DNA from: Verrucomicrobiaceae bacterium
GTDB taxonomy: Bacteria; Verrucomicrobiota; Verrucomicrobiia; Verrucomicrobiales; Verrucomicrobiaceae
Direction of reading: 5' to 3'
Assembly (NCBI GenBank): GCA_027489965.1
Contig: JAIXZA010000053.1
Location: forward strand, 57,976-121,975
DNA length: 64,000 bases
This document shows, piece after piece, positions 15,314 to 51,153 of the stretch (its first letter is position 1; each line of letters begins with the position of its first letter). Made by a program: the position numbers and the translations under genes. The notes under the pieces were generated by a model. That model had not been told where the DNA came from. It ran no database searches and saw only the letters and a program-made list of their open reading frames with translations.

Positions 15314-15327
15314 CAAGCTTGGCAGCT

Positions 15328-15355
15328 TTGACATTGCCTCATCCAACGCCACTCT
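15328..15355 (+). promoter_or_regulatory. Possible sigma70 promoter of gcvT
   Basis: Perfect -35 TTGACA, 16-bp spacer, weak -10 CACTCT. Confidence 0.3.
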
Positions 15356-15362
15356 GAAAGGC

Positions 15363-16472: not shown

Positions 16473-16478
16473 CTTTCT

Positions 16479-22426: not shown

Positions 22427-25400
22427 ATGAAGCTCTTCAAAATCACTCGCTGCCGCCTACTCTTGGCTATGCTGATCTGCCTGGGGGCGGGGTCAAGCTC
22501 TGGGCAGACGGCGATCACTCTGGAAGCAAACCAGAAGATGCTCTCATCAGGTATGCGCATTGAGTTCGGCAGCATCGATATTGGTGGGTATAAGACGCAG
22601 AATTTCACTGTCACGAACGCTAGCCTCTCCCCGGTCACAGGGCTGACCTGCACGCTGGATGGCGCGAATGCAGCGGACTTTGTGCTGAGCACACCGACAC
22701 TGGCAGATCTTGCCGTGGGAGCGGCGGTCAGCTTCTCGGTGACTTATGTGCCGGAGCTAGAGGGCAAAACCTCAGTCGCTGCGCTGCATGTGCGCAGTTC
22801 TGGAGGCAGCTCCTATGAGCTGCCACTGACGGCCACGGGCGGCAATCTGAACCCGACTGTGCTGGTGGAGGAGGTCGGCGGAGCTGTGGTGACCAGCCTC
22901 AGCCGACCTCTGGATTTCGGCAGCCCGATGATCGGCCAAAGTACCAGCAAGACTTTCCGCATCACCAACACCGGCACAGCTCCGCTGCGGGAGGTGAGTG
23001 TGGCGCGGGATGATCCTTGGAACTACAGGAACTTCTGGTCTATTGGCATTTATCCCACTTACACTTACCAATACGAGAGTGGCTTCACCGTCACTGGCGA
23101 CATCACCAGCGTCATCCCCCCTGGCGAAAGCCGTAGCATCACCGTCACGTGGAAGCCCTATGAAACGGTGCAGAAGACTCGCAACATCACACTTTCCTGG
23201 GCCATACGCTACCCACCGCCGCCACCGACAACCTATGATTTAACAAGTGACCCAAACCTTCTTTTCGCAGGTCAGGCCACCAGCATCATTATCGAAGGCA
23301 TTTACCTCAGCCCACGCCCCTACATCCCGCCTGTCCGCTTCAGCATCCCTGTTACCGGAGCTGCTGTGCCGTATGTTGTGACTCCCACACCGCTGAGTGG
23401 TCTGCAGTATCATCTGGGCAATGAAAACTCCACTGGCCAACTCCTCCCTAACCAAGCAGGCGCGCCCCCAGCTGATCCCAGGCTAGGCCCTGTGACTTCT
23501 TCTGTTCCTGACGGCGCAGGCCTGCTCACCGACACGCTGATACGCTGGAAACCAGCCGCCGCACCTTACAACAGCCTCACCTACTACAATAGCAACGTTG
23601 ATTGGCGCAACTACGCGCAGATGCAGCTCAGGCTAATCCCGATCACCGTGCCGGACATTGAAGCCACCCAAAAGCTAGGAGTGACTGTCGTTAAAAGTCC
23701 CAGGTCCGTCTTCGTCACGGGCACAGGCAGTGCAGCGGAGGCGCTGGGTAGCCGTATGGCGGTTGCCTTTACCGGTGGCACTCGGCTCAGTCATTCGGAT
23801 ATGCAGCTGCCTGCTGGAGACAATGTAGGCATGGAGCTATGGTTCAAGCCTGCAAGCCTCTCGGGCACTCAGTGCGTAGCCTTCATGGGAGCAACAGCGG
23901 ACGCTGGCTTTGGCCTATGGCTGACTGATGGCGTGCTGCAAGGCCGTGCTGGCAGCCTCTCCATCCTAGCTAGCACACCGGCGCTGGCGGTGGAGGAGTG
24001 GCATCACGTCGCCTTGATCGTGCAAAGTGGTAGCGCCAAACTCTACGTCGATGGTGAATTCGCAGGCAGTGCCGCGAGCGTGACCTTACCAGAAACTGTA
24101 AAGGGGCTCTCCATCGGTGCGATGCACGATGGCAGCAGCGGCTACGAAGGGCAGGTCGATGAGCTGCGTTTGTTTGAAATTCCCGCCAATGACTTCGATG
24201 TTACCCGCCACCTGCTCGCCAATGCGCGGCCATCGGCTTCACTAGATCAGACGGCACTCGACTATGGCCAAGTGCTGCCGGCGGCCATTTCGCGCCGCAG
24301 CGCTATCTTGGCAAATATTGGCCCAGGCTGGCTACGGGTGCTTTCCATGGAACTCATGGGCGATGGTGCTAGCGATTACAGCGTGTCAGCGCTGGGGCCA
24401 TACAACAGCTCCATACCCATCCAGCCGAATGCCACACCAGCTCCAGTTTATCCTACGTATAACTGGGGATTGACGACTGTGGGTAGTCTGTTTTTTCTCG
24501 ATGGCAACAGCGTGCCCGCCAACGAAGGCGTCGGCACGAAGATCGCTTACCGAGTGGCTGTCGCACCGCAGACAAAGCTGGAGGCGGTCGTCACCCACAC
24601 GGCGGGCGCGCTAGGGACACGCCCAGCTACGCTGCGGATCACCACGAACGACCCAGCGCATCCTGTTTATGAGATCGCGCTGAATGCGACCGTGGCGGCT
24701 CCCGTGCCCCAGTCGAAGATCGAAGTCAGTTCTGATGATGCTTGGGATTGGGGCAGCCTACTAACGAATGGTCAGAGCAATCGCACCTACACCGTACGCA
24801 CGGTGGGTTCTTTACCAATGGCTAGTTTCGGCGTGGAAATCATTGGCCCAAACGCAGAAGACATCACGCTCGACACGCAAAACAACCCGATAAACAACGG
24901 GCGAGTGAGCTTTTCCGACAACGGCTCGGCCTCTATCAGAATCGATGTCCGCCCTCGTTCTAGCGGTGCGCGCTACGCGGTGCTGCGAATCACCAGTGCC
25001 GACCCTGTGCGGCCAGAAATCATCATCCCGCTCTATGGCCGTGGCGTGCAGGCCGTGCCAGAGATCGCAGTAACGGTACATGACAGCGGCGACACCCGTA
25101 GGACTTCAGTAGCAGATGGCGGCAGCGCTGTGTTTAAAGCTACGCTCTCAGGCGGGCATCACTCCTTGATGAACTGCATCGTGCATAGTATCGGCACGGG
25201 GACGCTAGAAGGTGTCAGCGCCAACATCGACGGGGCAGACGCTGCCGATTTCGCCATCGTGGGCGAGCTGCCGGCCACTCTGCCGAGTCCTCACTACTCA
25301 TATTATCATCACAACGCTGGGATCAATCTGCGCTTTACTCCTAGCCGAGTTGGCAGCCATCGTGCGGTCTTGCACATCCTCAGCAACGACGCCGACGAGA

Positions 25401-28400
25401 GCCCCTATGACATCACGCTCACAGGTGAAGGACTAGCACCCGCCCCGATCATGCAGGTGATCGACCGAGACACAGTCATCGAGTCCGGCACAGGCTTCAC
25501 CCGCATGGGAAATGCCGTCATCGGCGCGGCATCTGTCACCCAGACACTGCGTCTGCGAAATGCCGGCACTGCACCGCTGACGGGCTTCACGGCCAGCTTT
25601 AGCGGACCGAACGCCAGCGAATTCAGCGCCACGCTGCCCAGCCATATCGCCGCAGGAACGGCGGGAGATGTCATCATCGCTTTTACCCCGGAGGACATCG
25701 GCCCGCGCAGTGCTGTGCTGACGCTGACTAGCAATGCCCCAAACAACCGCACCTACCGCATGAGCCTGGGTGGCACAGGAGCTTATGGGGTGAGGTCAAA
25801 TCTCGCGCCACCGGCCATCCCAGGCTGGGTCGGCACGACGATGGCTGAGCTGCCAGATGGCAGCATCGTCATGGCTGGCTACGTGGCAGCTGGCGCAGGT
25901 GAGACAGCACCAGCAGTGCCGACGAGCAGGCTGCGCATTATTGGCAAGGATGGCAGCGAGCGAAAGCGGGCACGGCTCCAACACGTGACGATTTCAGGCA
26001 TCGTCAAAAGTATTTGCGTTCGGGCTGATGGCAGCCTGCTGCTGGCAGGCGATTTTACACGACTCTGGGGTTCCCTAAGGCCTTCAAATGTTACGACTGG
26101 TTGGATGCCACCTCCAGGTTACGATACGAGACCCTTCATTGACTGCCAAGGAGTGGCTTTGATACTCTCAGATACTGCATGGATGCCCGCTCAAATAAGT
26201 GACGTTCTTTTAACAATGAGCTCAGACGGTCAAGGCCAAGCCTACCCCTTGGCATGGAGCACCAGCTTCGCTCCACCCACGGGAACCTTCAGCGGCCGCT
26301 CTGTGGTTGCTTTACCTGATGGCAAAGTGCTCGTCGGCGGCAGTGGTAGCCTGGGTGGCAGGGCCAACCTCTTACGCCTCAATGCCAATGGCACGATCGA
26401 TCCCACCTTCACTCTGCCCGAGCCGAATGGCCCCGTGAATGCGCTGGCCATGCAGGATGATGGCAAAGTGATTGTCGGGGGAGAGTTCACCAATCTTGGT
26501 CATGACAAACTCCCCAACGAAACGACAGCCAGCACGACCATTCCTTCCACCACAACCCCACGCAGTGGTTTATGCCGGCTCAATGCCGATGGCAGCGATG
26601 ATGCCACCTTTGCCAATCGCGGATTTCGCCAAGTCATGTCCCTCGCTGTGCGTGGGGATAGCATCGCTGTCGGTGGAAAGGGACCGCAATATACAGCCAT
26701 GATCGCCGGCCCTACGACTAACTTCATCACGCCCCCACCTAACTATGTCGAGATCGATCAAGCCGTGGCGAGACTACTTGGTCGTAATGGTGCGATCCTA
26801 GCGACTCAAACCGTTATAGAACCCCCGCAAGCTGTGGCCCTGCAGCCAGGCAATCGAATGCTCTTCTCCTCACGCTTCCTGAGCTTCAACGACACCATCA
26901 CGTATCCTGATATCGCCATGCTCCAGCCAGACTCAGCGCCGAAGGAATGGTTTGGCATCAAAATCACTGCTGACGTGATGCCTACCAGCAGCGTGGAGCC
27001 CTTTCTGATCAAATACCAGCAACTTCTCGGCGCGAGCGGAGTGCCTCTCGCGATCAACGCCCTGATTGCACAAGCCGATGGCAAAGTGCTCACGGCGGGT
27101 AATTTCACCAGGGCCAAAGTAGGACTCGATCGGCGTGGGTACCGTTCTGAGGGTGATCAGCGCCTGCCCCAGCCCACTCCCTTGCTGCCAGTGCTGGACA
27201 ATTCCCCACTGCCAGCCGAGAAGCAACTGGCAGGCTTTGCGCAGCTGGATGTCGATGGGTTTTATCATGCGAGTCCTGAGGTTTATGCAGGTAGTGGTAT
27301 TCATTGGGTAGGTGCCCCCTATGAAACGGACGAGACTACAATGTCCGATGGTCTGCGACGCCTCGACTTAGGCACCTTTCATGGGAACTTGGGAGCCATT
27401 GATCAATGGCTGATTGTTCCAACCTCAAGCGCCGCCAATCCCGATGCGATTACAATCGATGGAGATGATGCTGCCGACTTTGGCTTCATACCTGCGAGTG
27501 AAGGTTCCAATCATCTGTGGCTACATTTCACCCCCAGCCATTCAGGCAAACACCAGGCAAGGCTTCACGTCCGTGAGGATGGTCTCGTCAACAGTTTCGA
27601 CATTGCCCTTGAAGCTACAGCGACCGGCCGTTTGCCCGATCAAGTGAGGCTCGCGGATACGACGGGCCGAGTGTACCAGAGCACCGAGACGCGGGACCTC
27701 GGTAGCGTTAAACTCGGCAGCTCGACCACGCTAGATTTGCGGCTCTTCAATGATGGGTTAGTCGAAAACAGCACGCCTTTTGAGCTTAGTCTTTCAGGCA
27801 TTAAGGCCAGTGACTTCAAGGTATCTCCAACAGCGATTACCAGCATCCCAGGCTCCTCGCGCAATGGTACTGGCAGTGTGCCGATCACTGTCACTTTCAC
27901 TCCCAATGACTCAGGCCCAAGCACAGCGGTACTGAATCTCGTCACGATTTCGCGTGGCCGAAATGGCGACACACGAAGCATTCCCTTCACCCTCACGCTG
28001 ACAGGCGCTGGTGTCGTAGAGTCGCCTTTCTTTATCTCACATCCGCAGGATGTAATCGTGATGAAGGGCACGCCATTCAACCTGAGCTTTGAAGCCATTC
28101 ATAATTATAGAGGCTTTGAATTTGAATGGCGTCAGCAACGAGGCAGTAGGGATGTGATCATACGTCAACAAATCAGCGTCACTCGTGGCACCGCAGGCAA
28201 TGCCATCCACAAAACCAGCGACACCCTCGCCGTGGCCAAAGCCGACGCGACCTCCGCAGGCTACTATCATGTGGTGATCCGAAATGAAGACGGCACGGCT
28301 AACTCCCGCCGCGCTAGAGTCGGCGTCGTCGAGGTGGTGAACCGTGAATTCACCACAACGATTGGCGGAGACGCCGCTTTCGGCGTCTCCGTGAGCGGTC

Positions 28401-38995: not shown

Positions 38996-39076
38996 TCAAT
39001 GAAGGTTAATGGATGCAAGCAAGGTCTGAAGAAAGAATAAGTATATACAGTGCCCCATCGAAGCTACCCATTCCTC

Positions 39077-40396
39077 ATGAAGCCAACCCTTCTCCTCACC
39101 CTCCTTACGCTCGCCATCGTTCCTATCTCGCATGGTCAGCAACCGCCGCTCGTTGGCGGATTCAGCCAAACGGCGACCACCGATGCCGAAGTGCTCAAGG
39201 CAGCGCAATTTGCCGTCAAAGCCCACGATGTGAAACTCACGCTGCAAAGCGTCAATGCCGCCGAGCAGCAGGTCGTCGCAGGCATCAACTACAAGCTCCG
39301 GCTGGCCACTTCCGACGGTCGCAAGGCCGATGCCGTCGTCTGGCGCAAGCTTGATGGCAGCCACAAACTCACCTACTGGCAATCGATCTCTGTCGATCCC
39401 GCGATCCTCAAAACCGAATACATCTACAACACTGGCCCTTACCCACAGATCCACGCCACCACGATCGTCGAAACGCCCACGGGGCTTGTTTCTGCTTGGT
39501 TTGGCGGCACCGCCGAAAGGAATCCTGATGTGTGCATCTGGGTGTCGCGTCAGCTTCCCGATGGCAAATGGACCGAGGGCGTCGAAACGGCCAATGGTGT
39601 GCAAGCAGATGGCTCGCGGCATCCCACATGGAATCCTGTGCTGTTTCAGCCAAAAGATTCGCCGCTGATGCTCTTCTACAAGGTCGGCCCATCGCCAAGC
39701 ACCTGGTGGGGTGAACTCAAAACCTCGACCAATGGGGGCAAAACATGGTCAGCAGCTCAAAAGCTGCCAAAAGGCATCTTTGGCCCCATCAAGAACAAGC
39801 CCGTGCAACTCGCGAATGGCGATATCCTTTGCCCGACAAGCAACGAGACCGACACCAAGCCAAGCGCCTGGGCCATCTACTTCGAGCGCACCGCCGATCT
39901 CGGCAAAACCTGGACGCGCACGGAGCTGTTGCACGATGGTTTGAAAATCGGAGCCATCCAGCCTAGTATTCTTTTTCTCGGTGGCGATAAACTCCAAGCC
40001 GTGGGCCGCACGAAACAGGGTAAAGTCTTCCACATCACCTCCGACGATGCCGGCAAGACCTGGGGCGAGATTTCACTCACCGAACTGCCAAACCCGAACT
40101 CCGGCACCGACGCCGTCACGCTTGCCGATGGTCGTCATCTGCTCATCTACAACCACACCGCCAAAGGTCGCAGCCCGCTGAACCTCGCCGTGAGCAAGGA
40201 TGGCAAGACCTGGGAAGCTGCCTTGATGCTTGAGGACGCGCCAAAAAAAGAATTTAGCTATCCCGCTATCATTCAAACCAAGGACGGCCTCATACACATC
40301 ACCTACACTTGGCAGCGCCAGAAGGTGAAACATGTCGTGCTTGATCCTGCGAAACTTATGACAAAGCCCATTCTCGGTAGTCAGTGGCCGCAGTAG
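39077..40396 (+). CDS. Secreted cystatin-like domain fused to BNR/Asp-box sialidase-like beta-propeller
   Basis: Signal peptide. Cystatin hallmarks LVGGF..QQVVAGINY..VVW. Propeller with HATTIVE, WFGGTAE, WNPVLF and Asp-boxes STNGGKTW, TADLGKTW, SDDAGKTW, SKDGKTW. Confidence 0.85.
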   Translation: MKPTLLLTLLTLAIVPISHGQQPPLVGGFSQTATTDAEVLKAAQFAVKAHDVKLTLQSVNAAEQQVVAGINYKLRLATSDGRKADAVVWRKLDGSHKLTYWQSISVDPAILKTEYIYNTGPYPQIHATTIVETPTGLVSAWFGGTAERNPDVCIWVSRQLPDGKWTEGVETANGVQADGSRHPTWNPVLFQPKDSPLMLFYKVGPSPSTWWGELKTSTNGGKTWSAAQKLPKGIFGPIKNKPVQLANGDILCPTSNETDTKPSAWAIYFERTADLGKTWTRTELLHDGLKIGAIQPSILFLGGDKLQAVGRTKQGKVFHITSDDAGKTWGEISLTELPNPNSGTDAVTLADGRHLLIYNHTAKGRSPLNLAVSKDGKTWEAALMLEDAPKKEFSYPAIIQTKDGLIHITYTWQRQKVKHVVLDPAKLMTKPILGSQWPQ

Positions 40397-40461: not shown

Positions 40462-41082
40462 CTCAAGAATACGCTCTCCATCCTTCTCCTGCTAGCATGT
40501 CTCACTTTGCAATTGCACGCTCAAGAAATGCCCGCAGAGACCTTTGAGGTCGCCGGACACTCCGCCTACGTGCGCGGCTCGCCAGCCAGCACGGCGAAGT
40601 TCACGCTGTTTTAAAACGAGATGATCAAGCGTGGCTATTCCCCGAAGCCGATCCTGCTCGGCCAAAGTCGAGGCGGCATGATGACTCTGGCGTGGGCATT
40701 TCGAAATCCCGATAAGGTGAAGGTCTGGGTTGGAATCTACCCCGTCTGCAATCTCGCGAGTTGGCCGCTCCAGCCCGCCGAGGCCTCGACACTAGCCGAC
40801 TACGGCATGAAGAAGGAGGAACTCGTCGCCAAACTCAGTGAGTTCAATCCTATCGACAATCTCGCCGGACTCGCGGCAAACAAGGTTCCCATATTCGCCG
40901 TCCATGGCGATAGCGATGTGGTGGTGCCGTATGATTTGAACACGCAGACCCTCAAGGAGCGCTATCAGGCTGCAGGAGGCTCTTTCAACGTGAAGATGGT
41001 CCACTCTGAAGGTCATAAGGTTGGCCCTTCATTCTTCAAATGCCGAGAGCTGGTCGATTTTGTCCTGAAACACGCTAAATAA
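40462..41082 (+). pseudogene. Secreted alpha/beta hydrolase pseudogene
   Basis: A signal-like segment lacking ATG (ctc aag aat acg..), an in-frame TAA at 40612-40614, then the same frame continues with the nucleophile elbow GQSRGG, GIYPV, VHGDSDVVVP and a His region. The N-terminal part looks internally deleted. Confidence 0.7.
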
Positions 41083-41810: not shown

Positions 41811-42791
41811 ATGATATCCCTGATTGTCGGCCTTTTTGTCCTTTTACTTGTCTCGCTTGCCGAGTGGATTCATGGACGGCGCATTCGGGTGGCGGCGCGG
41901 CTGGCTTTTGGCACACAGGGCGCAAAGGCCTGGACACATCTGGTGCCGTGGCTGCGGGTCGCAAGTCTGACGGCGTTTGCGTGGGGCGTGACGACGTTGC
42001 TAATCCTCAAGCTTGAGATGCCCGAAGATACCTCGGCCAAGGAGCGCCAGGATGCAGAGGCGACGCGGCTGGTATTTGTCGCGGATTTGTCGCCGAGCAT
42101 GTTTTTAAAGGACTCGGGGCCGGATGGCACGCTGACACGTCATGCGCGGATGCGCGAGGTGGTGGAGGGCATTCTCCAGCGCGTGAGCGGGAACCTGCGC
42201 TTTGGCGTGATCGGGTTTTATACGGACTCATTGCCAGTGGTGATGGAGGCGCGCGATCCTGAGTTGGTGCGGAACGTCTTCAATGGTCTGCCGCTTACTT
42301 ATGCAATGCCTGTCGGTCAGACGGATCTCGGCACGGCAATCAATCGCACCTTGGAAATCGTGGAGGACTTTCCCAAAAGCAGCACACGCATGATCATCCT
42401 CACGGATGGCGACTCCATCCCGCTCGCGCCGATCAATCCGCGACCAGCATCGGTGCGGGAGCTGCTGGTGCTCGGCGTCGGCAATCCGCGCAAGGGCAGC
42501 TTCATCGACGGGCATCAATCGCGCCAGGAGTCCGATACATTGCAACGGGTCGCGATCTCGCTGCTTGGTGTTTATCATGATGTGAATGACAAGCATCTCG
42601 CGACCGAGGCATTGGGCGACCTCGTCGTGCCGCTGGCCCTGCCGCATCAGGGGCTCACGCTCGCGCAATGGGCTGTGCTGGCGATGGCGCTCGGCGCTTT
42701 CATTTATGCGCTGATTCCCGTAACGCTCGAATACTTCGGAACCGATTGGAAGGTGCGCAGCGTCAGGAAGGAGGTGGCCTCCGCACGATGA
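41811..42791 (+). CDS. vWA domain membrane protein (BatB-like)
   Basis: N-terminal TM pair, MIDAS DLSPSM, GQTDLG, IILTDGD, and a C-terminal TM. ATGA-coupled to the next gene. Confidence 0.85.
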   Translation: MISLIVGLFVLLLVSLAEWIHGRRIRVAARLAFGTQGAKAWTHLVPWLRVASLTAFAWGVTTLLILKLEMPEDTSAKERQDAEATRLVFVADLSPSMFLKDSGPDGTLTRHARMREVVEGILQRVSGNLRFGVIGFYTDSLPVVMEARDPELVRNVFNGLPLTYAMPVGQTDLGTAINRTLEIVEDFPKSSTRMIILTDGDSIPLAPINPRPASVRELLVLGVGNPRKGSFIDGHQSRQESDTLQRVAISLLGVYHDVNDKHLATEALGDLVVPLALPHQGLTLAQWAVLAMALGAFIYALIPVTLEYFGTDWKVRSVRKEVASAR

Positions 42792-43342
42792 GAAAGTTCT
42801 TCACCTTGCTCTGGCTGCTGTGTCCGGTGGCGGCGTTGTATTACCACTTCAATGAAGGTCAAAACGAGCTGGCCCGCATCCAGGCGCGCAAGCACGTCGA
42901 GCAAATCCGCGAGCTGGAGCGCATGAAGGAGCCGGATTGGGCGGTCATCATTGAGGAATATGACAAGCTCAGCGCTGAGCTGCCGAAGACCGAAGCCCCG
43001 CTCGTGCATCATCAGATTCGTCTGGCGAAATCCAAGGCGCAGTTGGAGTTGCTCGATGTCGCGGGCAGCATCGAAGAACTGACCAATCTATTGCGTGAGG
43101 CGGCACAGACACATGGCGAGGACGCAAAAATCACCCGCGCCGTGCGCGAGATGCTCGGCAAGGCGCACTATTACGCGACTTATCTTTTGAAGACCAACGG
43201 TGCAGCCGAGGAAGAATGGCGGCCCTTCGCCGAACGCACGCGGCAGATCTTCCGCTTCCTCGCGGAGCATCAGGAACCCGGCGCGCTCGCGAAGTATGAA
43301 GACCGCGTCGCGGCAGAATTTGAGAAGACGACCAGCAAATGA
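42788..43342 (+). CDS. Membrane-anchored helical/TPR-like protein (BatC position)
   Basis: ATG 42788 overlaps the upstream stop (the ORF track extends it to 42668). N-terminal hydrophobic segment and an all-helical pattern. Confidence 0.7.
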   Translation: MRKFFTLLWLLCPVAALYYHFNEGQNELARIQARKHVEQIRELERMKEPDWAVIIEEYDKLSAELPKTEAPLVHHQIRLAKSKAQLELLDVAGSIEELTNLLREAAQTHGEDAKITRAVREMLGKAHYYATYLLKTNGAAEEEWRPFAERTRQIFRFLAEHQEPGALAKYEDRVAAEFEKTTSK

Positions 43343-43929
43343 AAACACTGAAGTTCATCATCCTCTCATCACTCATGGCGGGCAGCGCCATGGCCCAGGA
43401 AAAATCTGCTATGGATGCGATCAATGGCGTCAAAGGCGTGAAGCAGGAAGCCGTGCAAAGCATTAAGAAGATCGCGCCACCAACGGTTGTGCCCGTGTCT
43501 CCGCCGCCACCAACGAGAGTGACTCAACCCATCCCTCCTCCACCGCCCACGGGTGTCGCGCAGCCACCGCCACCACCACCTCCTGCCGCACAAGGCGTCA
43601 ACAAAGTGGATGGCATTCAAGCAACGTCGCCGAACACCGTGAAGGGCATCCCGCCTCCGCCCGCTGCGACTATCAGCACTATCCGCGCGGTGCAAGGCGT
43701 GCAGGGAATCATCGCGCCGAAGCAGATGAATCTTGAAGCCGCGCTGCTTATCAAAGAAGACGCCAAAGGCGTTCCTGCTGCCAGAGGTACAGAAGGCGGC
43801 AAAGGTAAAGCTGCCGCTGCTGCCTTACTGAACGGTCCAAAGGGACTCACCCCCGCGCCACCCGTCCCGAACGGCGATGGACGCGCGGGACTACAAGAGT
43901 TCGAGAAGCTCGACAAGCCCGGATCATAA
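43339..43929 (+). CDS. Secreted proline-rich hypothetical protein
   Basis: Signal peptide (..GSAMA|QEK), poly-Pro runs, and a recurring V.GV.GI motif. ATGA-coupled. Confidence 0.75.
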   Translation: MKTLKFIILSSLMAGSAMAQEKSAMDAINGVKGVKQEAVQSIKKIAPPTVVPVSPPPPTRVTQPIPPPPPTGVAQPPPPPPPAAQGVNKVDGIQATSPNTVKGIPPPPAATISTIRAVQGVQGIIAPKQMNLEAALLIKEDAKGVPAARGTEGGKGKAAAAALLNGPKGLTPAPPVPNGDGRAGLQEFEKLDKPGS

Positions 43930-43938
43930 TCATACTCC

Positions 43939-46900
43939 ATGAACCCAATTCATCTCTGCGCCGCACTCGCGCTCGTCATCCTCACGGCTGTGCAAGCCCA
44001 ACAACCAGCGGCTCCCGTCCCCACTCTACTACCTGGGCCTGATCCAAAGCTCATCAAGGAATACGAGTCGATCCTGAAACAGAAGTTCACCCGCGACCCT
44101 GGCGAGCTGTTGCGTCACCTTGAACGCGTCGGCACCGCTGATCCCGCGACCTTACCGGCGAATGAGCGCTTCCTCATGCGCTTCGTCACCGGGGATTGGG
44201 CCAAGGTGGGTCAGGAACTGAAGCTGATGCCGCCCGAGCTTGCGGTGCAGATTTATAACAAGATGCTCGCTGATCTCACAGAGAATCGGAAGCCCGTGGT
44301 GCGCCTCGATGACATCATCGCGCTCTCCGATGTCTCACCGACGGAGCTCAACAACGACAACATCCGCCGACTCGGCCAACTCCTCGGTATCGCCGTGCCG
44401 ATGAGTGAGATCTTCTGGCTAACCGACCGTTTTCAAAAAGGCACGAGCAAGTTTGGCGGCACCGATCCGACAAAACGATTGCTTGCGGCGCGTGTGCTCA
44501 TCGCGGGCAATTTCCGCGATCTCGCACGCTCTTATTTGCCAGGGAACGATCAGATCGCAGAGATCGCCGATGAAGGCGTGCGTAATGAATTGATGAACTT
44601 CGTCGCCACGCAGGAGCAACGCGAGAGCACGCAGCGAAGTGAGGTGCAACGCATCTGGGATGAGAACATCCGCGAACTGCTCGCGCCTTCGACCGGAAAA
44701 AATAGAAACTCGGAACATCAGAGAGCCATCAGCAACCTTTCGAAGGTCATCACCCAAGTGCCGCCCGGCACCTTGGCCCCTGTCTTCACGGAACTCGTCA
44801 AAGACCATCCCGACACCGCGATGAAGCTGCTCACCGCGCTCGCTCGCAAAGTTCAATACGATCGTAATGGTGAAGTGCTGACCCGCACGTCGAACATCAC
44901 CGTGCAGGCGAATGTCGCGACCTTGCTCTGCGATCTCGTGAAGCCAGGCGAGCAGCCGTGGACGCAAGTCATCGAGCTGATGGCCGATGTTTGGGCCAGC
45001 GAAGCGGAGAACACGTTCACGCAAAAATCCGCCACGAGTAACCAGCAGAAGTTTATCCTGCCCGAAGACCTCATGCCGCACGCGCCAACGGGCAAATGGG
45101 CCGCTGTTCTCACTGCCAGTTCGCGTGATCGCATGGATGTCGCCATGTCTCGCCTCATCCTCACGGGAGCCAATTTTGATCAAGCCGCTGAACGCATCGT
45201 CGAGATCGGCAAACGTAGCGCGCGCGCCGGAGCCGCGTTGGCGGAGGATTTCCTCGGTGTCTGGGCGAAGACGCACAACCCGCAGATCCCCGAACCCCTG
45301 CGCCGCAAGTTCGGCCTGCCCGACGATGCACGCATCCCCGTCACGCCGATCATGATGGAGAAGAACATCGAGAGCCTCTCGCGCATGATGGCGCTGTTTC
45401 GTCAGGCCGGCATCGCACCAGCGGATTACAGCAAGGTCGTCGAGGCCTTCGATCTCGCTTACAGCAATGCGGAGACGTATCGCACCACGCACATCGAGAA
45501 AGTCTTCGGTCAGATGGACAAGATGGATGAGCCTTTGTTCTTCCTCATCCTTTCGCGCATGAGTAAGAACCTTGGCGAACGCTGGCGCAAAATGGACGTG
45601 CAAACAGCCGGTATGACGCAGCGCGATGAACAGCAGACGCTCGATCTTGTGCGCGAAGGCTACAGCACCGCGCTGAAGCTCATCGACGGCTGGATCGCAG
45701 GCCATGGCGACAGCTCGCGAGCGCTCACGCTCGCAGGCACGCTGCTCGTTGAGTGGGGCGATTTTGAATACTTCCAGGAACTCGTCGCTGGTGACAGCAA
45801 GATGCGTCTGCTAGGCTACAAAGAGAAGAATCTGCAAGCCCAGGACTACTTCAATCGCGGAGCCGTCGCCTATGGCAAGCAAGTCGCCAAACTCGCACCT
45901 GACGATTACAGCGTGGATGCCTACCTTGGCTGGTTCAATGGACTGCTCGGCATCAGCTCGAACGGCCAGATCAATCTCAGCAAAGCCATGAATCGCGCCG
46001 CTTTGACACGCATCCGCGAGCATCTCGTCGCGCTGCCCGGCAAGGCAGCGAAGACGCACATCAGTATGTTTGCCAAGATCGTGAATGACCGTCTTGCGGA
46101 TGAAAAAGACCCGCTGCACGAGGATTTGAAATACCGCTACCTCGCCAGCTCGCTCGTCATCACCAAGGACGATCCCTTCACGCTCGGCGCACAAAAACAG
46201 GTCGCGTATCTCGATGAATTGCTCAGTGAAGTGCGGCTGCAAACTCGCGTCGATGGACCGAACACCGTGGGTCGCGATCAAGACTTCGGCATCATCGTTA
46301 GCATCGTCCACACCGAGGCCATGGGCCGCGCAGCTCACTTCGGCCAATACCTCACGAACGACGCCAATGCCGGACTCGTGAAGCAGCAGAGAAAGCCATC
46401 CGCACTCGTGAAGAAGATGCGCGCCGCGCAAGGCCCCCGCGATGAACTCGAACTCAACATCACCGAAGCACTCGCACCCTTCTTTGACATCAAGAGCATC
46501 ACCTTCGCCACGCCCGACATCAAGCCACGCCCCACCGCACAAGCGGGTTGGGACGAGACCGTGCTCGCCTACCTGCATGTGCGCGCGAAGGACGCCAGCG
46601 TTGATAAGATCCCGCCGGTGCAGCTTGAACTTAAGTTCGTCGATCTCAGTGGCCCCATCACCATCCCCGCCGAGTCTGCCGAGACCGTCATCAAGGTCGC
46701 CACGGACAAGATCGAACCACGCCCAGCGAATAACATCGAGATCACGCAAACGCTCGACAACCGCCAACTCAACATCAACGGCGGCCTCACGCTCGAAGTG
46801 AAAGCCACCGCGAGCGGACTCGTGCCCGAGCTTGAGCAACTGCTCGACATGAAAGCCGCGAACGCCATCGCGGTGAAGAATGTGAACCCGCACGAAGGCC

Positions 46901-47490
46901 TGCAAATCACCGAGCTGAACACCTGGGCCGATCAAGTCGCGCCGAAGTCCGAGCGCGTCTGGACGATCTCATTGGATGGCGATCAAGTTCGCGCCTCCGA
47001 GACGCCCATCACGTTCAGCTTTCCTCAACCCAAGGCCAAGGATGCGAAGGTCGTGAACGAAAGCTACACCGACATGAACCTCACCACCTTGAAGGAGCCC
47101 GCGGTGCAAGTTGGCCGCACCATGACTGCCAAGGAGGTCGCCATCGTCGCCGCGAAGAGTCCGTATCTTTGGCCATCCATCATCGGCGGCGCGGTTTTGG
47201 CACTGGCATTGATCCTCTGGCTCGCACTACGCGGCAAGGGCAAAACAGAGCGCCCAGTGCGTGCCCGCGATGTCTTCACGATGCCCAAGGAAGTCGATGG
47301 CTTCGCCGTCGTCGCCCTGCTGCGACGCTTGTGTTCGAGTCCGCTCGTGAAACTGAAGGAAACGCAGCAGAGCGAACTACAAACCGACCTCAAGCGCGTG
47401 GAAGCCGCCTGCTTCGGCTCCAGCGCAGGCGCGATGTCCGAAACTGATTTGCGCGCCATCGCCTCGAAGTGGCTCCGCAGCGCTACGTAA
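43939..47490 (+). CDS. 1183-aa secreted/membrane-anchored protein (helical N-terminus, BatD-like Ig-type C-terminus)
   Basis: Signal peptide, a long alpha-helical region, a beta-rich region from about VRLQTRVDGP, and a C-terminal TM (LWPSIIGGAVLALALILWLAL) with a cytoplasmic tail. Confidence 0.75.
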   Translation: MNPIHLCAALALVILTAVQAQQPAAPVPTLLPGPDPKLIKEYESILKQKFTRDPGELLRHLERVGTADPATLPANERFLMRFVTGDWAKVGQELKLMPPELAVQIYNKMLADLTENRKPVVRLDDIIALSDVSPTELNNDNIRRLGQLLGIAVPMSEIFWLTDRFQKGTSKFGGTDPTKRLLAARVLIAGNFRDLARSYLPGNDQIAEIADEGVRNELMNFVATQEQRESTQRSEVQRIWDENIRELLAPSTGKNRNSEHQRAISNLSKVITQVPPGTLAPVFTELVKDHPDTAMKLLTALARKVQYDRNGEVLTRTSNITVQANVATLLCDLVKPGEQPWTQVIELMADVWASEAENTFTQKSATSNQQKFILPEDLMPHAPTGKWAAVLTASSRDRMDVAMSRLILTGANFDQAAERIVEIGKRSARAGAALAEDFLGVWAKTHNPQIPEPLRRKFGLPDDARIPVTPIMMEKNIESLSRMMALFRQAGIAPADYSKVVEAFDLAYSNAETYRTTHIEKVFGQMDKMDEPLFFLILSRMSKNLGERWRKMDVQTAGMTQRDEQQTLDLVREGYSTALKLIDGWIAGHGDSSRALTLAGTLLVEWGDFEYFQELVAGDSKMRLLGYKEKNLQAQDYFNRGAVAYGKQVAKLAPDDYSVDAYLGWFNGLLGISSNGQINLSKAMNRAALTRIREHLVALPGKAAKTHISMFAKIVNDRLADEKDPLHEDLKYRYLASSLVITKDDPFTLGAQKQVAYLDELLSEVRLQTRVDGPNTVGRDQDFGIIVSIVHTEAMGRAAHFGQYLTNDANAGLVKQQRKPSALVKKMRAAQGPRDELELNITEALAPFFDIKSITFATPDIKPRPTAQAGWDETVLAYLHVRAKDASVDKIPPVQLELKFVDLSGPITIPAESAETVIKVATDKIEPRPANNIEITQTLDNRQLNINGGLTLEVKATASGLVPELEQLLDMKAANAIAVKNVNPHEGLQITELNTWADQVAPKSERVWTISLDGDQVRASETPITFSFPQPKAKDAKVVNESYTDMNLTTLKEPAVQVGRTMTAKEVAIVAAKSPYLWPSIIGGAVLALALILWLALRGKGKTERPVRARDVFTMPKEVDGFAVVALLRRLCSSPLVKLKETQQSELQTDLKRVEAACFGSSAGAMSETDLRAIASKWLRSAT

Positions 47491-47514
47491 GCCCAACCTT
47501 TCCCAAAACACTTC

Positions 47515-48504
47515 ATGTCCACTACCACCACTTATCCTCAGAGTCCGCAGCAGTTCGTCGCCGGAGTTCGCGAGCGTGTCGCGAAGATCGTCGTCGGCCA
47601 GGATGTCGTCGTCGAGCGCGTGATGATCGCCTTGCTCACGGGCGGGCATTTGCTCCTGCAGGGCCTACCCGGCCTCGCGAAGACGTTGCTCGTCAACACC
47701 ATCGCCAAGGCCATTAACCTCGACTTCAAGCGCATCCAGTTCACCATCGACATGCTGCCGTCCGACATCATCGGATCGGAGATCATCGAGCAAAAAAGCG
47801 GCGAGTTCCGCATCCATCGCGGCCCGGTGTTCACGAACCTGCTGCTCGCCGATGAAATTAACCGCGCGGCTCCGAAGGTGCAGGGCGCGATGCTCGAAGC
47901 GATGCAGGAACGCAAGGTGACCATCGGCGGCCAGAACCTCAAACTGCCCACGCCTTTCCTCGTCATCGCCACGCAAAACCCGGTCGAACAATCAGGCACC
48001 TTCGATCTCCCCGAGGCACAACTCGACCGCTTCATGCTGCTGCATCGCCTCGGTTATCCGACACGTGATGAAGAACAGATGATCCTGCAACGCCAGCTCG
48101 GCATGGGTTTGCGAAAGGAAGACGGCGGCGCGGTCCCACGCTCTGCCTTCGACATGATCGAAGATAGCCCAGGGGCATCCGTCGCTGATCTCGTCACCTC
48201 CATGGAGGCGGTGCAGGCCGTGCACGTCAGCGAAGTCTTCGTGAAGCATTGCGTCGAACTCGTGCGCCGCACGCGCGACAATCCGCTACTCGACTTCGGT
48301 TGCAGCCCGCGCGCCGGACTCGCGCTCATCAACTCCGCCCGCGCACGCGCCATCATGCATGATCGCGATTACGTCACGCCCGAGGATCTCTTCGATCTCG
48401 CCGAAGACGTCATCCTACACCGCATCCGCGTCAGCTACGAAGCGTCCGCGGCCGGTCACACTGGTAAACAAATGCTCGAAGGCATCCTCGCAGGCTTGGG
48501 CTGA
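47515..48504 (+). CDS. moxR: MoxR-family AAA+ ATPase
   Basis: GHLLLQGLPGLAKT, RIQFTIDMLPSDIIG, LLADEINRAAPKVQGAMLEAMQE, ATQNPVEQSGTFDLPEAQLDRF, GCSPRA. Confidence 0.95.
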   Translation: MSTTTTYPQSPQQFVAGVRERVAKIVVGQDVVVERVMIALLTGGHLLLQGLPGLAKTLLVNTIAKAINLDFKRIQFTIDMLPSDIIGSEIIEQKSGEFRIHRGPVFTNLLLADEINRAAPKVQGAMLEAMQERKVTIGGQNLKLPTPFLVIATQNPVEQSGTFDLPEAQLDRFMLLHRLGYPTRDEEQMILQRQLGMGLRKEDGGAVPRSAFDMIEDSPGASVADLVTSMEAVQAVHVSEVFVKHCVELVRRTRDNPLLDFGCSPRAGLALINSARARAIMHDRDYVTPEDLFDLAEDVILHRIRVSYEASAAGHTGKQMLEGILAGLG

Positions 48505-48515
48505 TTCGCATTGTC

Positions 48516-49379
48516 ATGAAAGGCCAATTCCAGCTCAATCCCGATCCTGTCGATGCGCGGCAGTTCGAGGTCACGGTCAAGCAACTGGCCAACAGCCTCA
48601 ACTTCGGCCAGGAGGAGTCCGTCTTCCACGGTGGCGGGCTGGAGTATGCGCAGTCGCGGCTCTATGTGGCGGGCGATCCAGTGAAGTTTATTGATTGGAA
48701 AGTCTCCGCGCGTGTCGGCAAGCTCTTCATCAAAGAGTATCAGGAGCCGAAGCAAATCCCGCTCTACCTGCTGCTCGATACGTCCGCGTCGATGTGCTTA
48801 AGCTCGCAAATGCTGAGCAAGTATGCCTGGGCCGTGCGCATCGCCACGGGCATCGCGCTCGCGGCGCAGACGAGCATGACGCCTGTGGGCTTGCTCGGAT
48901 GCGGCGCGCGTGAGCTGCATGTGCGGCCCACGCTCTCGCGGAATCTCGTCATGGAATGGTCGCACAAATTGCGCCTGCACGACTTCCTGGAAGAAACTTC
49001 GCTCGCCAAACGCGCCCGCGAAGTCGCGCCTTCATTAAAGCGCCGCACTACTGTCATTGTGCTCAGCGATCTGCATGACCCGGATGCCTTCGCTGCGCTG
49101 CAAGTCATGTCGCAAGAGCATGATTGTCTGGTGCTGCATCTCCAAGATCCTGCCGAGTTGAACATCAAAGGCGCGGGCATCTTTCGCGGCAGTGAAGCTG
49201 AGTCTGGTCGCAGCTTCGTCGGCCATGGACGCCGTGCCTTCATCAAGAGCGAGGAATGGAAAAGCGAACTCACACGCTTCGGCATCGATTACATGCACTT
49301 GCGCACCGACCAACCCATCCTTGGCAAGTTGCGTCACTTTTTAAACCGTCGCGGCTTCGGAGGTAGCTCAGGACGATGA
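48516..49379 (+). CDS. DUF58 (vWA-like) protein
   Basis: GLEYAQSRLYVAGDPVKFIDWKVSAR..LFIKEYQE, LLLDTSASM, IVLSDL. Confidence 0.92.
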   Translation: MKGQFQLNPDPVDARQFEVTVKQLANSLNFGQEESVFHGGGLEYAQSRLYVAGDPVKFIDWKVSARVGKLFIKEYQEPKQIPLYLLLDTSASMCLSSQMLSKYAWAVRIATGIALAAQTSMTPVGLLGCGARELHVRPTLSRNLVMEWSHKLRLHDFLEETSLAKRAREVAPSLKRRTTVIVLSDLHDPDAFAALQVMSQEHDCLVLHLQDPAELNIKGAGIFRGSEAESGRSFVGHGRRAFIKSEEWKSELTRFGIDYMHLRTDQPILGKLRHFLNRRGFGGSSGR

Positions 49380-50188
49380 AACGCAAACACCTCATTCTGC
49401 TCACCGCAGTCCTCGTCATCGCGGGCATCATCGCCTTTGTGGTCACGCGCAGGAAAGACGATGGACTGCGCGTGCCGCTCGGGGTCGAGCAAGCCGCCAT
49501 CGTCACCTACAGCGGGCCGTTGCTCGCGGTTGCGCCTTACAAGTGGGGTGTGGCGGTGAATGTGCGCATCGCTGAGGTCACGGAGAAGCCGGACCGTCGA
49601 GTGTATGACCTGCGCTACATCGTCAATCGTGCGGGCACCTTTGATCTCAAGGACTACCTCGTCGCCGATGACGGCAGCACGCTGGAAGGTCTGCCCGCGT
49701 TCAAGTTCGAAGGCGATCCCAAGCTCTCGAAGAACCTCGACACACGCATCCAGGAGACCGAAGAGATCCGTGTCGATGTCGGTGGCCACTACTATGAGCG
49801 GATGGCCTTGTTCACGCTGCTGTGGATCGGTTGGTTGTTCCTGCTCATCTTCTGGAAGCGTCCGAAACCGCCTGCCGAGACGGATGCTGGACCACCGCCA
49901 CCCACACTCGCCGAGATGATGCGCAGCTTCCTCGCCCAACTCGAAGCGGGCACTCTCAACGCCGACGCAAAGGCCAAAATGGAAATGGTCATGCTGCAAT
50001 GCTGGCGCAACGAACTCGCCTTGGGCAATGAACCGATGGAAAGCGTGCTTGCTCACATAGCCAGCAATGGCAAGACCAGCGAGGCTTTGAAGAAGCTGCA
50101 GCATTGGTTGCATCACCCGAGTTCATCCGTTCCCAGCGCTGACATAGCTGCTGTGATCAAGCCCTATACCCTGGAGGCTGCGTCATGA
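49376..50188 (+). CDS. Membrane protein of MoxR/vWA operon (position between DUF58 and BatA)
   Basis: N-terminal TM, a beta-rich domain (YDLRYIVNRAGTFDLKDYL), a second TM and a Pro-rich linker. ATGA-coupled on both sides. Confidence 0.75.
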   Translation: MKRKHLILLTAVLVIAGIIAFVVTRRKDDGLRVPLGVEQAAIVTYSGPLLAVAPYKWGVAVNVRIAEVTEKPDRRVYDLRYIVNRAGTFDLKDYLVADDGSTLEGLPAFKFEGDPKLSKNLDTRIQETEEIRVDVGGHYYERMALFTLLWIGWLFLLIFWKRPKPPAETDAGPPPPTLAEMMRSFLAQLEAGTLNADAKAKMEMVMLQCWRNELALGNEPMESVLAHIASNGKTSEALKKLQHWLHHPSSSVPSADIAAVIKPYTLEAAS

Positions 50189-51153
50189 TCTTCCAGCATC
50201 CCCAGTTCTTAGGCCTGCTCGCGCTACCCGTCATCCTCGCCTTTTGGGAATGGACACGGCGGGGACAACCCATCGCCATGCCCTTCGATCATGGGCATCA
50301 GGGGCGTGGACGTATTTTGCAGTTTTTCGTGCTCACCGCGAACTGCCTGCCCGCCGCACTGCTCGCGATGGCGATCATCTTTCTCGCTCATCCAATGACC
50401 TACACACCGCCGGAAGTGGAGCGGAAGCTCAACAACGTGCAGTTCGTGCTCGATACCTCCGGCAGCATGGCCGAGGACCATGGTTCACAAGCAAAGGGTC
50501 GGCATCGGCGCTTCGATTCGGCGATGGATGCGATCGAGCAGTTCATCACCTATCGCCAAGGCGATGCCTTCGGGCTTACCATCTTCTCCCGTAGCTTCAT
50601 CCACTGGCTGCCGCTCACTCTCGATACTCAGTCGATCCCACTTTCCAAGCGCTTCATCGAGCCGAACAACCCCAAGCTTGATCCTCCTTCCATGGGCCGC
50701 CACGGCCTGCCCGATGAACTTTGGGGTGGAACCTTCATCGGCAAAGCCCTGCACGGCGCTGCCGATTTGCTCGACCAACGCCCCGAGGGTGATCGCATGA
50801 TCATCCTCATGACCGATGGCGAAAGCGATGACATCAAGCCGCCCCTTGACGCTGCCGTCATTGAGCACTTGCGGGCCAAGAAGATTACTGTTTTCAGCAT
50901 CATGCTCACGGGCGATAAGATCTCGGAACCTCTCATCAACATCACCCGCGCCACTGGCGGCGAAGTCTTCAATGCCGTTACACCTGAGGCATTAGCGAGC
51001 GTCTTCAAGAGCATCGACGAAATGAAAAAAGTCATCGTGCTGGAGAAGCGCCCGCGCGTCATCGACTTCTACGATCCGTTTTTCATCCCCTCGATCAGCT
51101 TGCTGGGAGTGAGCGTGCTGGCATTATTCGGCCTACGGTTCACCCCCTGGTAA
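50185..51153 (+). CDS. vWA domain membrane protein (BatA-like)
   Basis: MIFQHPQFLGLLALP BatA-type N-terminus, MIDAS DTSGSM, GDAFGLTIF, GTFIGKAL, ILMTDGE, and a C-terminal TM. Confidence 0.9.
   Translation: MIFQHPQFLGLLALPVILAFWEWTRRGQPIAMPFDHGHQGRGRILQFFVLTANCLPAALLAMAIIFLAHPMTYTPPEVERKLNNVQFVLDTSGSMAEDHGSQAKGRHRRFDSAMDAIEQFITYRQGDAFGLTIFSRSFIHWLPLTLDTQSIPLSKRFIEPNNPKLDPPSMGRHGLPDELWGGTFIGKALHGAADLLDQRPEGDRMIILMTDGESDDIKPPLDAAVIEHLRAKKITVFSIMLTGDKISEPLINITRATGGEVFNAVTPEALASVFKSIDEMKKVIVLEKRPRVIDFYDPFFIPSISLLGVSVLALFGLRFTPW

Follow-up and report, generated by a model that had tools for sequence, protein, structure and literature searches.

The DNA analysed here is a 64,000-nt stretch (the window) of contig JAIXZA010000053.1 from a Verrucomicrobiaceae bacterium, and the subject is a Bat-like operon of eight genes, designated g1 to g8, which combines a MoxR-type ATPase gene with genes for von Willebrand factor A (vWA) proteins. 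The list of open reading frames (ORFs) and their translations placed these genes head to tail on the plus strand between positions 41811 and 51153 of the window, at the coordinates given by a first-pass annotation made from the sequence alone (Table 1). Start and stop codons overlapped as ATGA at four junctions (g1/g2, g2/g3, g6/g7 and g7/g8), and the remaining intergenic gaps measured 9 nt (g3/g4), 24 nt (g4/g5) and 11 nt (g5/g6). The tight coupling of eight co-directional genes described in the first-pass annotation was thus confirmed, with one correction. The start of g2 at 42788 (MRKFF..., 184 aa) is more likely than the longest-ORF start at 42668, because it gives the ATGA overlap with g1 and because orthologues start at the same residue. 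Upstream, 275 nt separated the block from its neighbor, and downstream the distance was 126 nt. The flanking genes, encoding a BNR sialidase-like protein, a short peptidase_S9 fragment, DUF4440/SnoaL proteins and an oxidoreductase, were unrelated to the block and were not kept beside it in other genomes. No integrase or transposase adjoining the block was found among the flanking genes scanned.

Table 1. Genes of the block and regions of the g4 protein (positions in the window; regions of g4 are predicted)
Feature	Position	Strand	Residues	Description
g1	41811-42791	+		membrane-anchored vWA protein, 326 aa, BatB position; vWA predicted periplasmic
g2	42788-43342	+		184 aa, invariant N-terminal transmembrane anchor and all-helical domain; BatC slot
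g3	43339-43929	+		secreted Pro-rich low-complexity protein, 196 aa, predicted signal peptide
g4	43939-47490	+		1183-aa anchor protein, unnamed PVC family
g4 signal peptide			1-21	
g4 alpha-solenoid	44041-46224	+	~35-762	AlphaFold2 model
g4 beta-rich region	46231-47112	+	765-1058	AlphaFold2 model
g4 transmembrane segment	47158-47238	+	1074-1100	followed by a basic stretch
g4 cytosolic tail	47263-47487	+	1109-1183	conserved, helical, three helices
g5	47515-48504	+		MoxR-type AAA+ ATPase, 329 aa, cytoplasmic
g6	48516-49379	+		DUF58 protein, 287 aa, cytoplasmic, vWA-like, MIDAS DTSAS
g7	49376-50188	+		two-transmembrane-segment protein, 270 aa; 'hyp' slot between DUF58 and the BatA-like vWA gene
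g8	50185-51153	+		membrane-anchored vWA protein, 322 aa, BatA-like; vWA predicted periplasmic

Pfam and NCBIfam identified four of the eight proteins (g1, g5, g6 and g8), and this domain content agreed with the earlier description of a Bat-like operon with MoxR, DUF58 and two vWA proteins. Scans of the window proteins and of their orthologue sets with Pfam, NCBIfam and PADLOC gave no match for g2, g3, g4 and g7. The g5 protein matched AAA_3 (PF07726) with 209 bits over all 131 profile positions and AAA_lid_2 (PF17863) with 71 bits, carried the Walker A motif GLPGLAKT and the Walker B motif LLLADE, and gave a weaker second match to bpMoxR (PF20030, 48 bits). It was 43% identical to MoxR of the Bat operon of Parabacteroides distasonis and 66-68% identical to its Planctomycetota-type orthologues. 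With its AAA_3 core and lid, a DUF58 gene 11 nt downstream (g6) and genes for vWA and transmembrane (TM) proteins nearby, g5 belongs to the MoxR-proper (MRP) group. The g6 protein matched PF01882 with 102 bits and the P. distasonis DUF58 protein with an E value of 1e-25. No TM segment was detected in g5 or g6 in the hydropathy scan.

The same scan showed that g1 and g8 share the BatA/BatB architecture of N-terminal TM segments, a vWA domain and a C-terminal TM segment. In g1, TM1 (residues 1-23) and TM2 (48-68) precede a vWA domain with the MIDAS (metal ion-dependent adhesion site) DLSPS...TDGDS, and TM3 spans residues 282-309; in g8, two N-terminal TM helices precede a vWA domain with the MIDAS DTSGS...TDGES and a C-terminal TM segment. 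For g1, the scores were 32 bits for VWA_2 in Pfam and 31.5 bits for BatB_Lepto in NCBIfam against a cut-off of 350, and its orthologues in loci L081 and L084 were 41% and 35% identical, respectively. For g8, the scores were 48.7 bits for VWA_2, 42 bits for VWA and 48 bits for BatA_Lepto against a cut-off of 380. The BatA N-terminal domain (PF07584) scored 16.9 bits in g8, under its cut-off of 25.9, and was not matched by g1. In BLASTP with the P. distasonis proteins, g8 matched BatA at 2e-10 and BatB at 3e-8, and g1 matched BatA at 1e-4 and BatB at 0.016. The earlier designation of g1 as BatB-like therefore holds by position only, since its sequence scores are slightly better against BatA. The three DxSxS motifs reported as intact (DLSPS in g1, DTSAS in g6 and DTSGS in g8) were indeed complete and near-invariant in orthologues, the Planctomycetota-type ones included (29 of 31 for g1, 31 of 32 for g6 and 27 of 29 for g8).

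The other four proteins, g2, g3, g4 and g7, represent uncharacterised families, whose named members are so far limited to Verrucomicrobiota and Planctomycetota. The largest, g4, had no Pfam match in the window protein or in 14 Verrucomicrobiota-type and 7 Planctomycetota-type members. A word-indexed search returned 126 full-length relatives at 49-93% identity, all annotated as hypothetical, and those with names were all from Verrucomicrobiota. The family grew to 960 relatives at E<=1e-3 (432 at E<=1e-30) when its profile was run against 1.84 billion cluster representatives, and the distant full-length ones with names were labelled Planctomycetia, Planctomycetota, Planctomycetaceae or, in some cases, 'Verrucomicrobiota bacterium' metagenome-assembled genomes (MAGs). 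As defined here, the family comprises proteins about 1150-1650 aa long. Each has a signal peptide, an alpha-solenoid and a beta region, a single TM segment and a conserved cytosolic tail, and is encoded downstream of a g2 homologue; g4 of the window has this make-up. The AlphaFold2 (AF2) model, built with 75 homologues, had a mean predicted local distance difference test score (pLDDT) of 79. Foldseek comparison of the model gave generic alpha-solenoids only (TM-score <=0.22), and a search of the PDB sequences with the family profile gave no relative.

The g2 gene was always located directly upstream of g4 (or of g3-g4), also where MoxR was absent (L082 and L083), and the alignment of its orthologues had a mean column identity of 79%. 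It belonged to no Pfam family, TPR_9 being matched in just 3 of 31 orthologues at E 0.02. For g7, AF2 (pLDDT 78) predicted a TM segment (residues 3-24), a periplasmic immunoglobulin (Ig)-like beta-sandwich (31-114), a second TM segment (137-159) and a five-helix cytosolic domain (178-264). Foldseek gave just non-significant Ig-like and chagasin-like matches for this model, no Pfam match was found in the window protein or in 27 family members, and all 452 homologues were annotated as hypothetical.

The g3 gene, noted before as an inserted gene for a Pro-rich secreted protein, was found in Verrucomicrobiota only among the loci sampled, with no separate g3 gene in L081 and L084. Its conserved parts were the N-terminal GVKGVKQE and an acidic C-terminus (NLEAAL...DGR..FQEFEK...GS), and the Pro-rich repeats between them varied. 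The length of g3 differed widely through tandem Pro-rich repeats, with four copies of about 35 aa in a locus from Opitutae (L053, 8680-9864). The Planctomycetota-type g4 proteins carried low-complexity N-terminal extensions of 100-500 aa in place of g3. It might be that g3 was split off from such an extension, a suggestion made without sequence evidence.

The order of the genes was examined in Verrucomicrobiota with g4 as the anchor and one genome per GTDB species, which gave 80 loci from Verrucomicrobiae, Chthoniobacterales and Opitutae, read by tblastn with the eight window proteins. The order g1-g2-(g3)-g4-g5-g6-g7-g8 on a single strand was complete in 39 loci. Another 35 ended at contig ends and what remained of them fitted the g1-first order, and two were trivial exceptions (one with an additional MoxR paralogue, one with a frameshift in g4), so that the order was consistent in 76 of the 80. 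True departures, with a broken block, were limited to four (L002, L008, L009 and L042). Where tblastn missed g3, a gene-sized gap was left, and in L053 this gap contained a clear g3 with longer Pro-rich repeats. The identity of g4 among these loci ranged from 49 to 94%, and the flanks differed between loci. Among the sampled Verrucomicrobiota, this rotation is therefore the rule and neither a local oddity nor a peculiarity of the genome analysed here.

Several loci of the census showed local variation. Among close relatives (g4 88-91% identical) broken blocks without runs of N were noticed in L002, L007 and L009: in L002 (13564-23561), the genes that came after g1-g4 were unrelated and opposite in strand, in L007 no match to g5-g8 was found within about 2.6 kb after g4, and in L009 g3-g4 alone were present. 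A real split and mis-assembly of the MAG both fit these three cases. Insertions of 1-6.5 kb were located at the g4/g5 or g5/g6 junctions of L008, L023, L038 and L042. L006, whose g4 was 91% identical, contained a 1308-aa ORF without a Pfam match (14544-18470) between the MoxR and DUF58 genes. The titles of MAG records were unreliable, as Verrucomicrobiota-type loci (L016, L017, L019, L022, L068 and others) were labelled Klebsiella pneumoniae, Akkermansia muciniphila, Polynucleobacter or Proteobacteria.

Beyond Verrucomicrobiota, the neighborhoods of four distant g4 genes and 80 metagenomic loci were scored with hidden Markov models (HMMs) for all eight families. Orthology of g1, g2, g4, g5, g6, g7 and g8 between the window and L081 or L084 was confirmed by pairwise BLASTP, with identities of 25-68%. 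The canonical Bat order g5-g6-g7-g8-g1-g2-g4 (order A) was present in 31 loci, mostly Planctomycetota-type and L084 among them. The g4-first order g4-g5-g6-g7-g8-g1-g2 (order B) was detected in 7 firm and 5 probable loci, and the window order without g3, g1-g2-g4-g5-g6-g7-g8 (order C), in one, L081, from a Planctomycetia-labelled MAG. Six further firm loci carried a detached g2-g4 pair with no MoxR within 8-10 kb (order D). A single circular order, cyclically rotated, gives all of A, B and C: A breaks the adjacency g4|g5, B breaks g2|g4 and C breaks g8|g1. The first-pass annotation had read the window order as a cyclic rotation of the canonical one, and the occurrence of the same seven families in canonical order in 31 loci substantiated this. 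The subunit sets that travel together are [MoxR-DUF58-g7-vWA], [vWA] and [g2-g4].

A neighbor-joining tree of g4 (1115 columns, 87 sequences) grouped order C into one clade, composed of Verrucomicrobiota and L081, and order B into one clade nested in a paraphyletic order A. The bipartitions of order C, of Verrucomicrobiota alone and of order B each had bootstrap values of 100/100. The outgroup, P. distasonis (L085), has order A, and the literature reports the same order for B. fragilis; on these grounds, the canonical order is ancestral, and B and C are each single, old derivations. The window order arose once, when g1-g2-g4 was moved ahead of MoxR, at the root of Verrucomicrobiota or earlier. 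The g3 gene was gained in the Verrucomicrobiota lineage, and the arrangement has stayed fixed since then. The first-pass annotation had explained the rotation by integration of a circular intermediate or by duplication and deletion. The rotation is real, the two routes are indistinguishable and nothing mobile flanks the block; the route is not recoverable, as a rotation results both from a cut-and-swap of halves and from a tandem duplication whose outer copies are then lost. The same annotation had named an order that was the ancestral norm across the Planctomycetota-Verrucomicrobiota-Chlamydiota (PVC) bacteria as what would speak against it. The window order is no such norm, being regular in Verrucomicrobiota, with the Planctomycetota-type loci mostly canonical.

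In a marine clade of canonical-order relatives (L109, 6395-8626; L108, L110, L111 and L113), a gene for a 743-aa MMPL/RND-family transporter (Pfam MMPL, 138 bits) separated g2 from the g1-like vWA gene, and the start of the transporter gene overlapped the stop of its g1-like neighbor. This insertion is a weak contextual clue to a possible lipid or envelope export.

The genuine Bat operon of P. distasonis served as a positive control. Its BatA and BatB passed the profile cut-offs, and its proteins matched, as expected, VWA with the BatA N-terminal domain, TPR_1 in BatC (E 7e-20), PF13584 in BatD (172 bits), and TPR and SH3. In BLASTP of the window proteins against it, only MoxR, DUF58 and the vWA domains matched, and the family HMMs of g2, g4 and g7 gave no match in its proteins. 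The likeness to the Bat operons, arranged as moxR-DUF58-hyp-batA-batB-batC-batD-batE in B. fragilis and with versions in Riemerella, Leptospira and Borrelia, included one co-directional operon with an AAA_3-type MoxR, a DUF58 protein, two vWA proteins with three TM segments and MIDAS, and, encoded between DUF58 and the first vWA gene, a beta-domain protein with either two TM segments or a signal peptide and a TM segment. At the distal end, the gene of a helical protein precedes that of a large anchored periplasmic protein; in the Planctomycetota-type relatives the gene order itself was shared. The differences were the rotated order in the window, the vWA proteins far under the NCBIfam cut-offs for BatA and BatB, the lack of BatE, and the g4 alpha-solenoid of about 730 residues and the Pro-rich g3, both without a Bat counterpart.

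Such a likeness could mean that the block is the canonical Bat aerotolerance operon with its genes shuffled, g2 being BatC, g4 BatD (with BatE) and g7 the Bacteroides 'hyp', as very diverged true orthologues with the same function. The slot-for-slot positional match in the canonical-order relatives argues for this, as do the layouts: BatD consists of a signal peptide, beta domains, a TM segment and a helical tail, paralleling the C-terminal third of g4, and the Bacteroides hyp369 protein parallels g7 in that a signal peptide and a beta domain precede a TM segment and a helical tail. The best sub-threshold HMM and hhalign alignments also lay in equivalent regions (g7 tail with hyp369 tail, E ~0.1; g4 beta region with BatD beta region, E 0.01-0.02). 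Moreover, fusions of BatD, TPR and SH3 are reported in Borrelia (PMC5700661), among them BB0170, a precedent for a BatD-type anchor joined to a helical-repeat module. On the other side, no significant similarity in sequence or profile was found in any direct comparison. HMM and hhalign searches of g2 against P. distasonis BatC gave E>=0.4, PF13584 was not detected in the 14 Verrucomicrobiota-type and 7 Planctomycetota-type g4 proteins (E<=0.1-1), hhalign of the g4 family with the BatD family, whole or with the beta region and tail taken apart, gave a probability of <=3.3%, and hhalign of g7 with hyp369 was non-significant. The PF13584, TPR and SH3 domains, strong in the control, were absent from these g4 proteins and from 31 g2 and 27 g7 members, and no BatE gene (TPR and SH3) was found in or beside the block. 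Taken with the solenoid and g3, these results make the shuffled operon of true orthologues unlikely. As judged by profile comparison, g2, g4 and g7 are rather positional and architectural analogues of BatC, BatD and hyp, perhaps very remote homologues and no demonstrable members of those families, in keeping with the earlier remark that the BatC and BatD slots hold divergent proteins.

The bb0170-bb0176 cluster of Borrelia burgdorferi resembled the window in its MoxR-adjacent vWA membrane proteins, with three TM segments and a periplasmic vWA domain. It differed in lineage and gene order and in that its proteins, unlike g4, can still be matched to the BatD, TPR and SH3 families. In the MoxR-vWA-TGL operons, a MoxR-clade AAA+ protein works with a MIDAS vWA adaptor that recruits the substrate, and the same logic was assumed for g5 and g6. 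RavA-ViaA, CbbQ-CbbO, NorQ-NorD and the Mg-chelatase BchI-BchD are also MoxR-vWA pairs. All these systems are cytoplasmic and have defined clients, whereas the partners in the window are mostly predicted to be periplasmic. The MUL1 locus of Akkermansia muciniphila (Amuc_0543-0550) was considered as a candidate identity and dropped, as a 2026 paper calls MUL1 Sus-like and non-syntenic in aquatic Akkermansiaceae.

The exact sequence was present in freshwater metagenomes, and metatranscriptome contigs of relatives with 90-95% identity covered g4-g7. One contig of 1617 nt spanned positions 46309-47928 across the g4/g5 junction, and further ones covered 47444-47827 (g4/g5) and 48383-48533 (g5/g6). 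These contigs indicate that the locus is expressed in nature and, by crossing the junctions, are consistent with its transcription as a unit.

The topology of the subunits was deduced from the hydropathy scan, the spread of Lys and Arg around the TM segments (positive-inside rule) and the precedent of Borrelia BB0173, the vWA domain of which was mapped experimentally to the periplasm (PMC5700661). In g1 and g8 a basic loop lies between the two N-terminal TM segments and is followed by the vWA domain and the third TM segment; the basic loop therefore placed the vWA domains in the periplasm. The charges around the TM helices of g4 and g7 also agreed with the AF2 models of these two proteins. The predicted periplasmic parts further include the helical domain of g2, the disordered Pro-rich g3, about 1050 residues of solenoid and beta region of g4 and the Ig-like domain of g7. 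Predicted to be cytoplasmic are MoxR, DUF58, the conserved g4 tail of 75 residues and, in g7, the C-terminal domain with its five helices. According to this prediction, six proteins project from the inner membrane into the periplasm and two are cytoplasmic, and the g4 tail and the g7 domain are the only conserved cytoplasmic handles of the membrane subunits.

Considering the domain content, gene order and predicted topology, the block is probably a PVC-lineage variant of the MoxR(MRP)-DUF58-vWA Bat-type system, which would form an inner-membrane-anchored, periplasm-facing complex with a cytoplasmic AAA+ motor. In the proposed mechanism, MoxR, with DUF58 as the adaptor, would engage the cytosolic tails of g4 and/or g7 and use ATP to assemble or remodel a periplasmic scaffold made of the g4 solenoid and beta region, g2, g3, the Ig-like domain of g7 and the two MIDAS domains. 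The action of MoxR and DUF58 on these tails is the most economical model, because the membrane subunits have no other cytoplasmic parts. Within the scaffold, g1 and g8 may use their MIDAS sites to bind acidic ligands on partner or client proteins, vWA domains being metal-dependent substrate adaptors (via MIDAS) for MoxR-clade AAA+ proteins (PMC3495828). By analogy, a role in envelope maintenance and stress tolerance may be suggested. The Riemerella Bat operon has heat and oxidative stress phenotypes (PMC11834572), and phenotypes of Bat-type operons were also reported for Bacteroides, Francisella and Rhizobium (cited in PMC11834572 and PMC5700661).

Several points weigh against this interpretation. 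Leptospira bat mutants had no morphology or growth defect (PMC3557215), and the Bat system itself is without an established biochemical function. The contact of MoxR/DUF58 with the cytosolic tails is purely what we infer, and the function and topology of the PVC variant are predicted, not measured. As to the gene order, some canonical-order clusters were labelled Verrucomicrobiota, so that the equation of Verrucomicrobiota with the rotated order holds only for the g4 clade of the 80-locus census, and the taxon labels of the metagenomic loci were sparse. As to expression, two of the RNA libraries were labelled 'METAGENOMIC RNA-Seq', and DNA carry-over is possible.

A bolder extension of the Bat-type variant, which we regard as quite improbable, is that g2-g4 with g7 and g3 form a PVC-specific periplasmic scaffold, a membrane-tethered and MoxR-loaded solenoid and beta structure, underlying a PVC trait such as the enlarged or invaginated periplasm or the uptake and storage of macromolecules or glycans. 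The three rotations would then reflect repeated permutation by tandem duplication and loss, selected for a single transcript.

The first-pass annotation had suggested that the block probably encodes a trans-envelope chaperone or export machine whose client is unknown. Export or secretion across the envelope could be read from the periplasmic parts predicted in six of the eight proteins, the ATPase and the MMPL/RND-family gene inside the operon of the marine clade. However, that gene is limited to one clade, no secretin, outer-membrane barrel, pilin, translocase or signal-specific component was found in the block or its flanks, and MoxR-clade ATPases are known as remodelling or insertion chaperones rather than translocation motors (PMC3495828). 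The predicted topology is that of an inner-membrane-anchored periplasmic complex with a cytoplasmic ATPase, and a secretion function is very improbable.

The GC content of the operon (42001-50000) was 0.58-0.60 as compared with 0.51-0.56 in the nearest flanks, which might suggest a recent rearrangement or a horizontally acquired island delivered by a circular intermediate or a mobile element. A similar GC content was reached at 24001-26000 of the window and was therefore not read as a sign of transfer; with the same order throughout Verrucomicrobiae, Chthoniobacterales and Opitutae in differing flanks, the single g4 clade and the lack of an integrase or transposase among the flanking genes scanned, a recent acquisition is scarcely credible. 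The bpMoxR match of g5 might point to a ternary MoxR-vWA system that serves NTP-dependent conflict or defence against phages. Such a system has next to no likelihood given the far higher AAA_3 score, the lack of a beta-propeller or effector domain, the absence of PADLOC matches for all eight proteins and a syntenic conservation that is phylum-wide and not patchy.

Bat-type MoxR/vWA operons are widespread, and the PVC version of them, as a probable variant, is now delimited. Of interest are the four conserved unannotated subunit families, the PVC-restricted giant protein with a predicted periplasmic solenoid and the three cyclic permutations of one operon. Together with the detached g2-g4 module, the three cyclic orders constitute a natural experiment on which subunits travel together, and the system provides a target list for genetics in tractable PVC bacteria. 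A role in shaping the unusual PVC envelope, if there is one, would make the system broadly interesting; if there is none, several thousand 'hypothetical proteins' still gain a corrected annotation.

Some other ORFs in and near the block were noticed. Two minus-strand ORFs lie inside g4 (44419-45705, 428 aa, and 45811-46935, 374 aa) and are most likely no genes, as they can be put down to the codon bias of g4 and its high GC content. Upstream of the block, a 448-aa ORF with a GTG start (39050-40396) encodes a BNR_2 sialidase-like domain (294 bits) and, N-terminal to it, a cystatin/SQAPI-like inhibitor domain, which is an unusual pairing. It is followed by a 153-aa ORF (40621-41082), which matches the C-terminal part of Peptidase_S9 alone (profile positions 68-193 of 213). 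This ORF was kept in L001 and L004 and may be a truncated gene or encode a small esterase.

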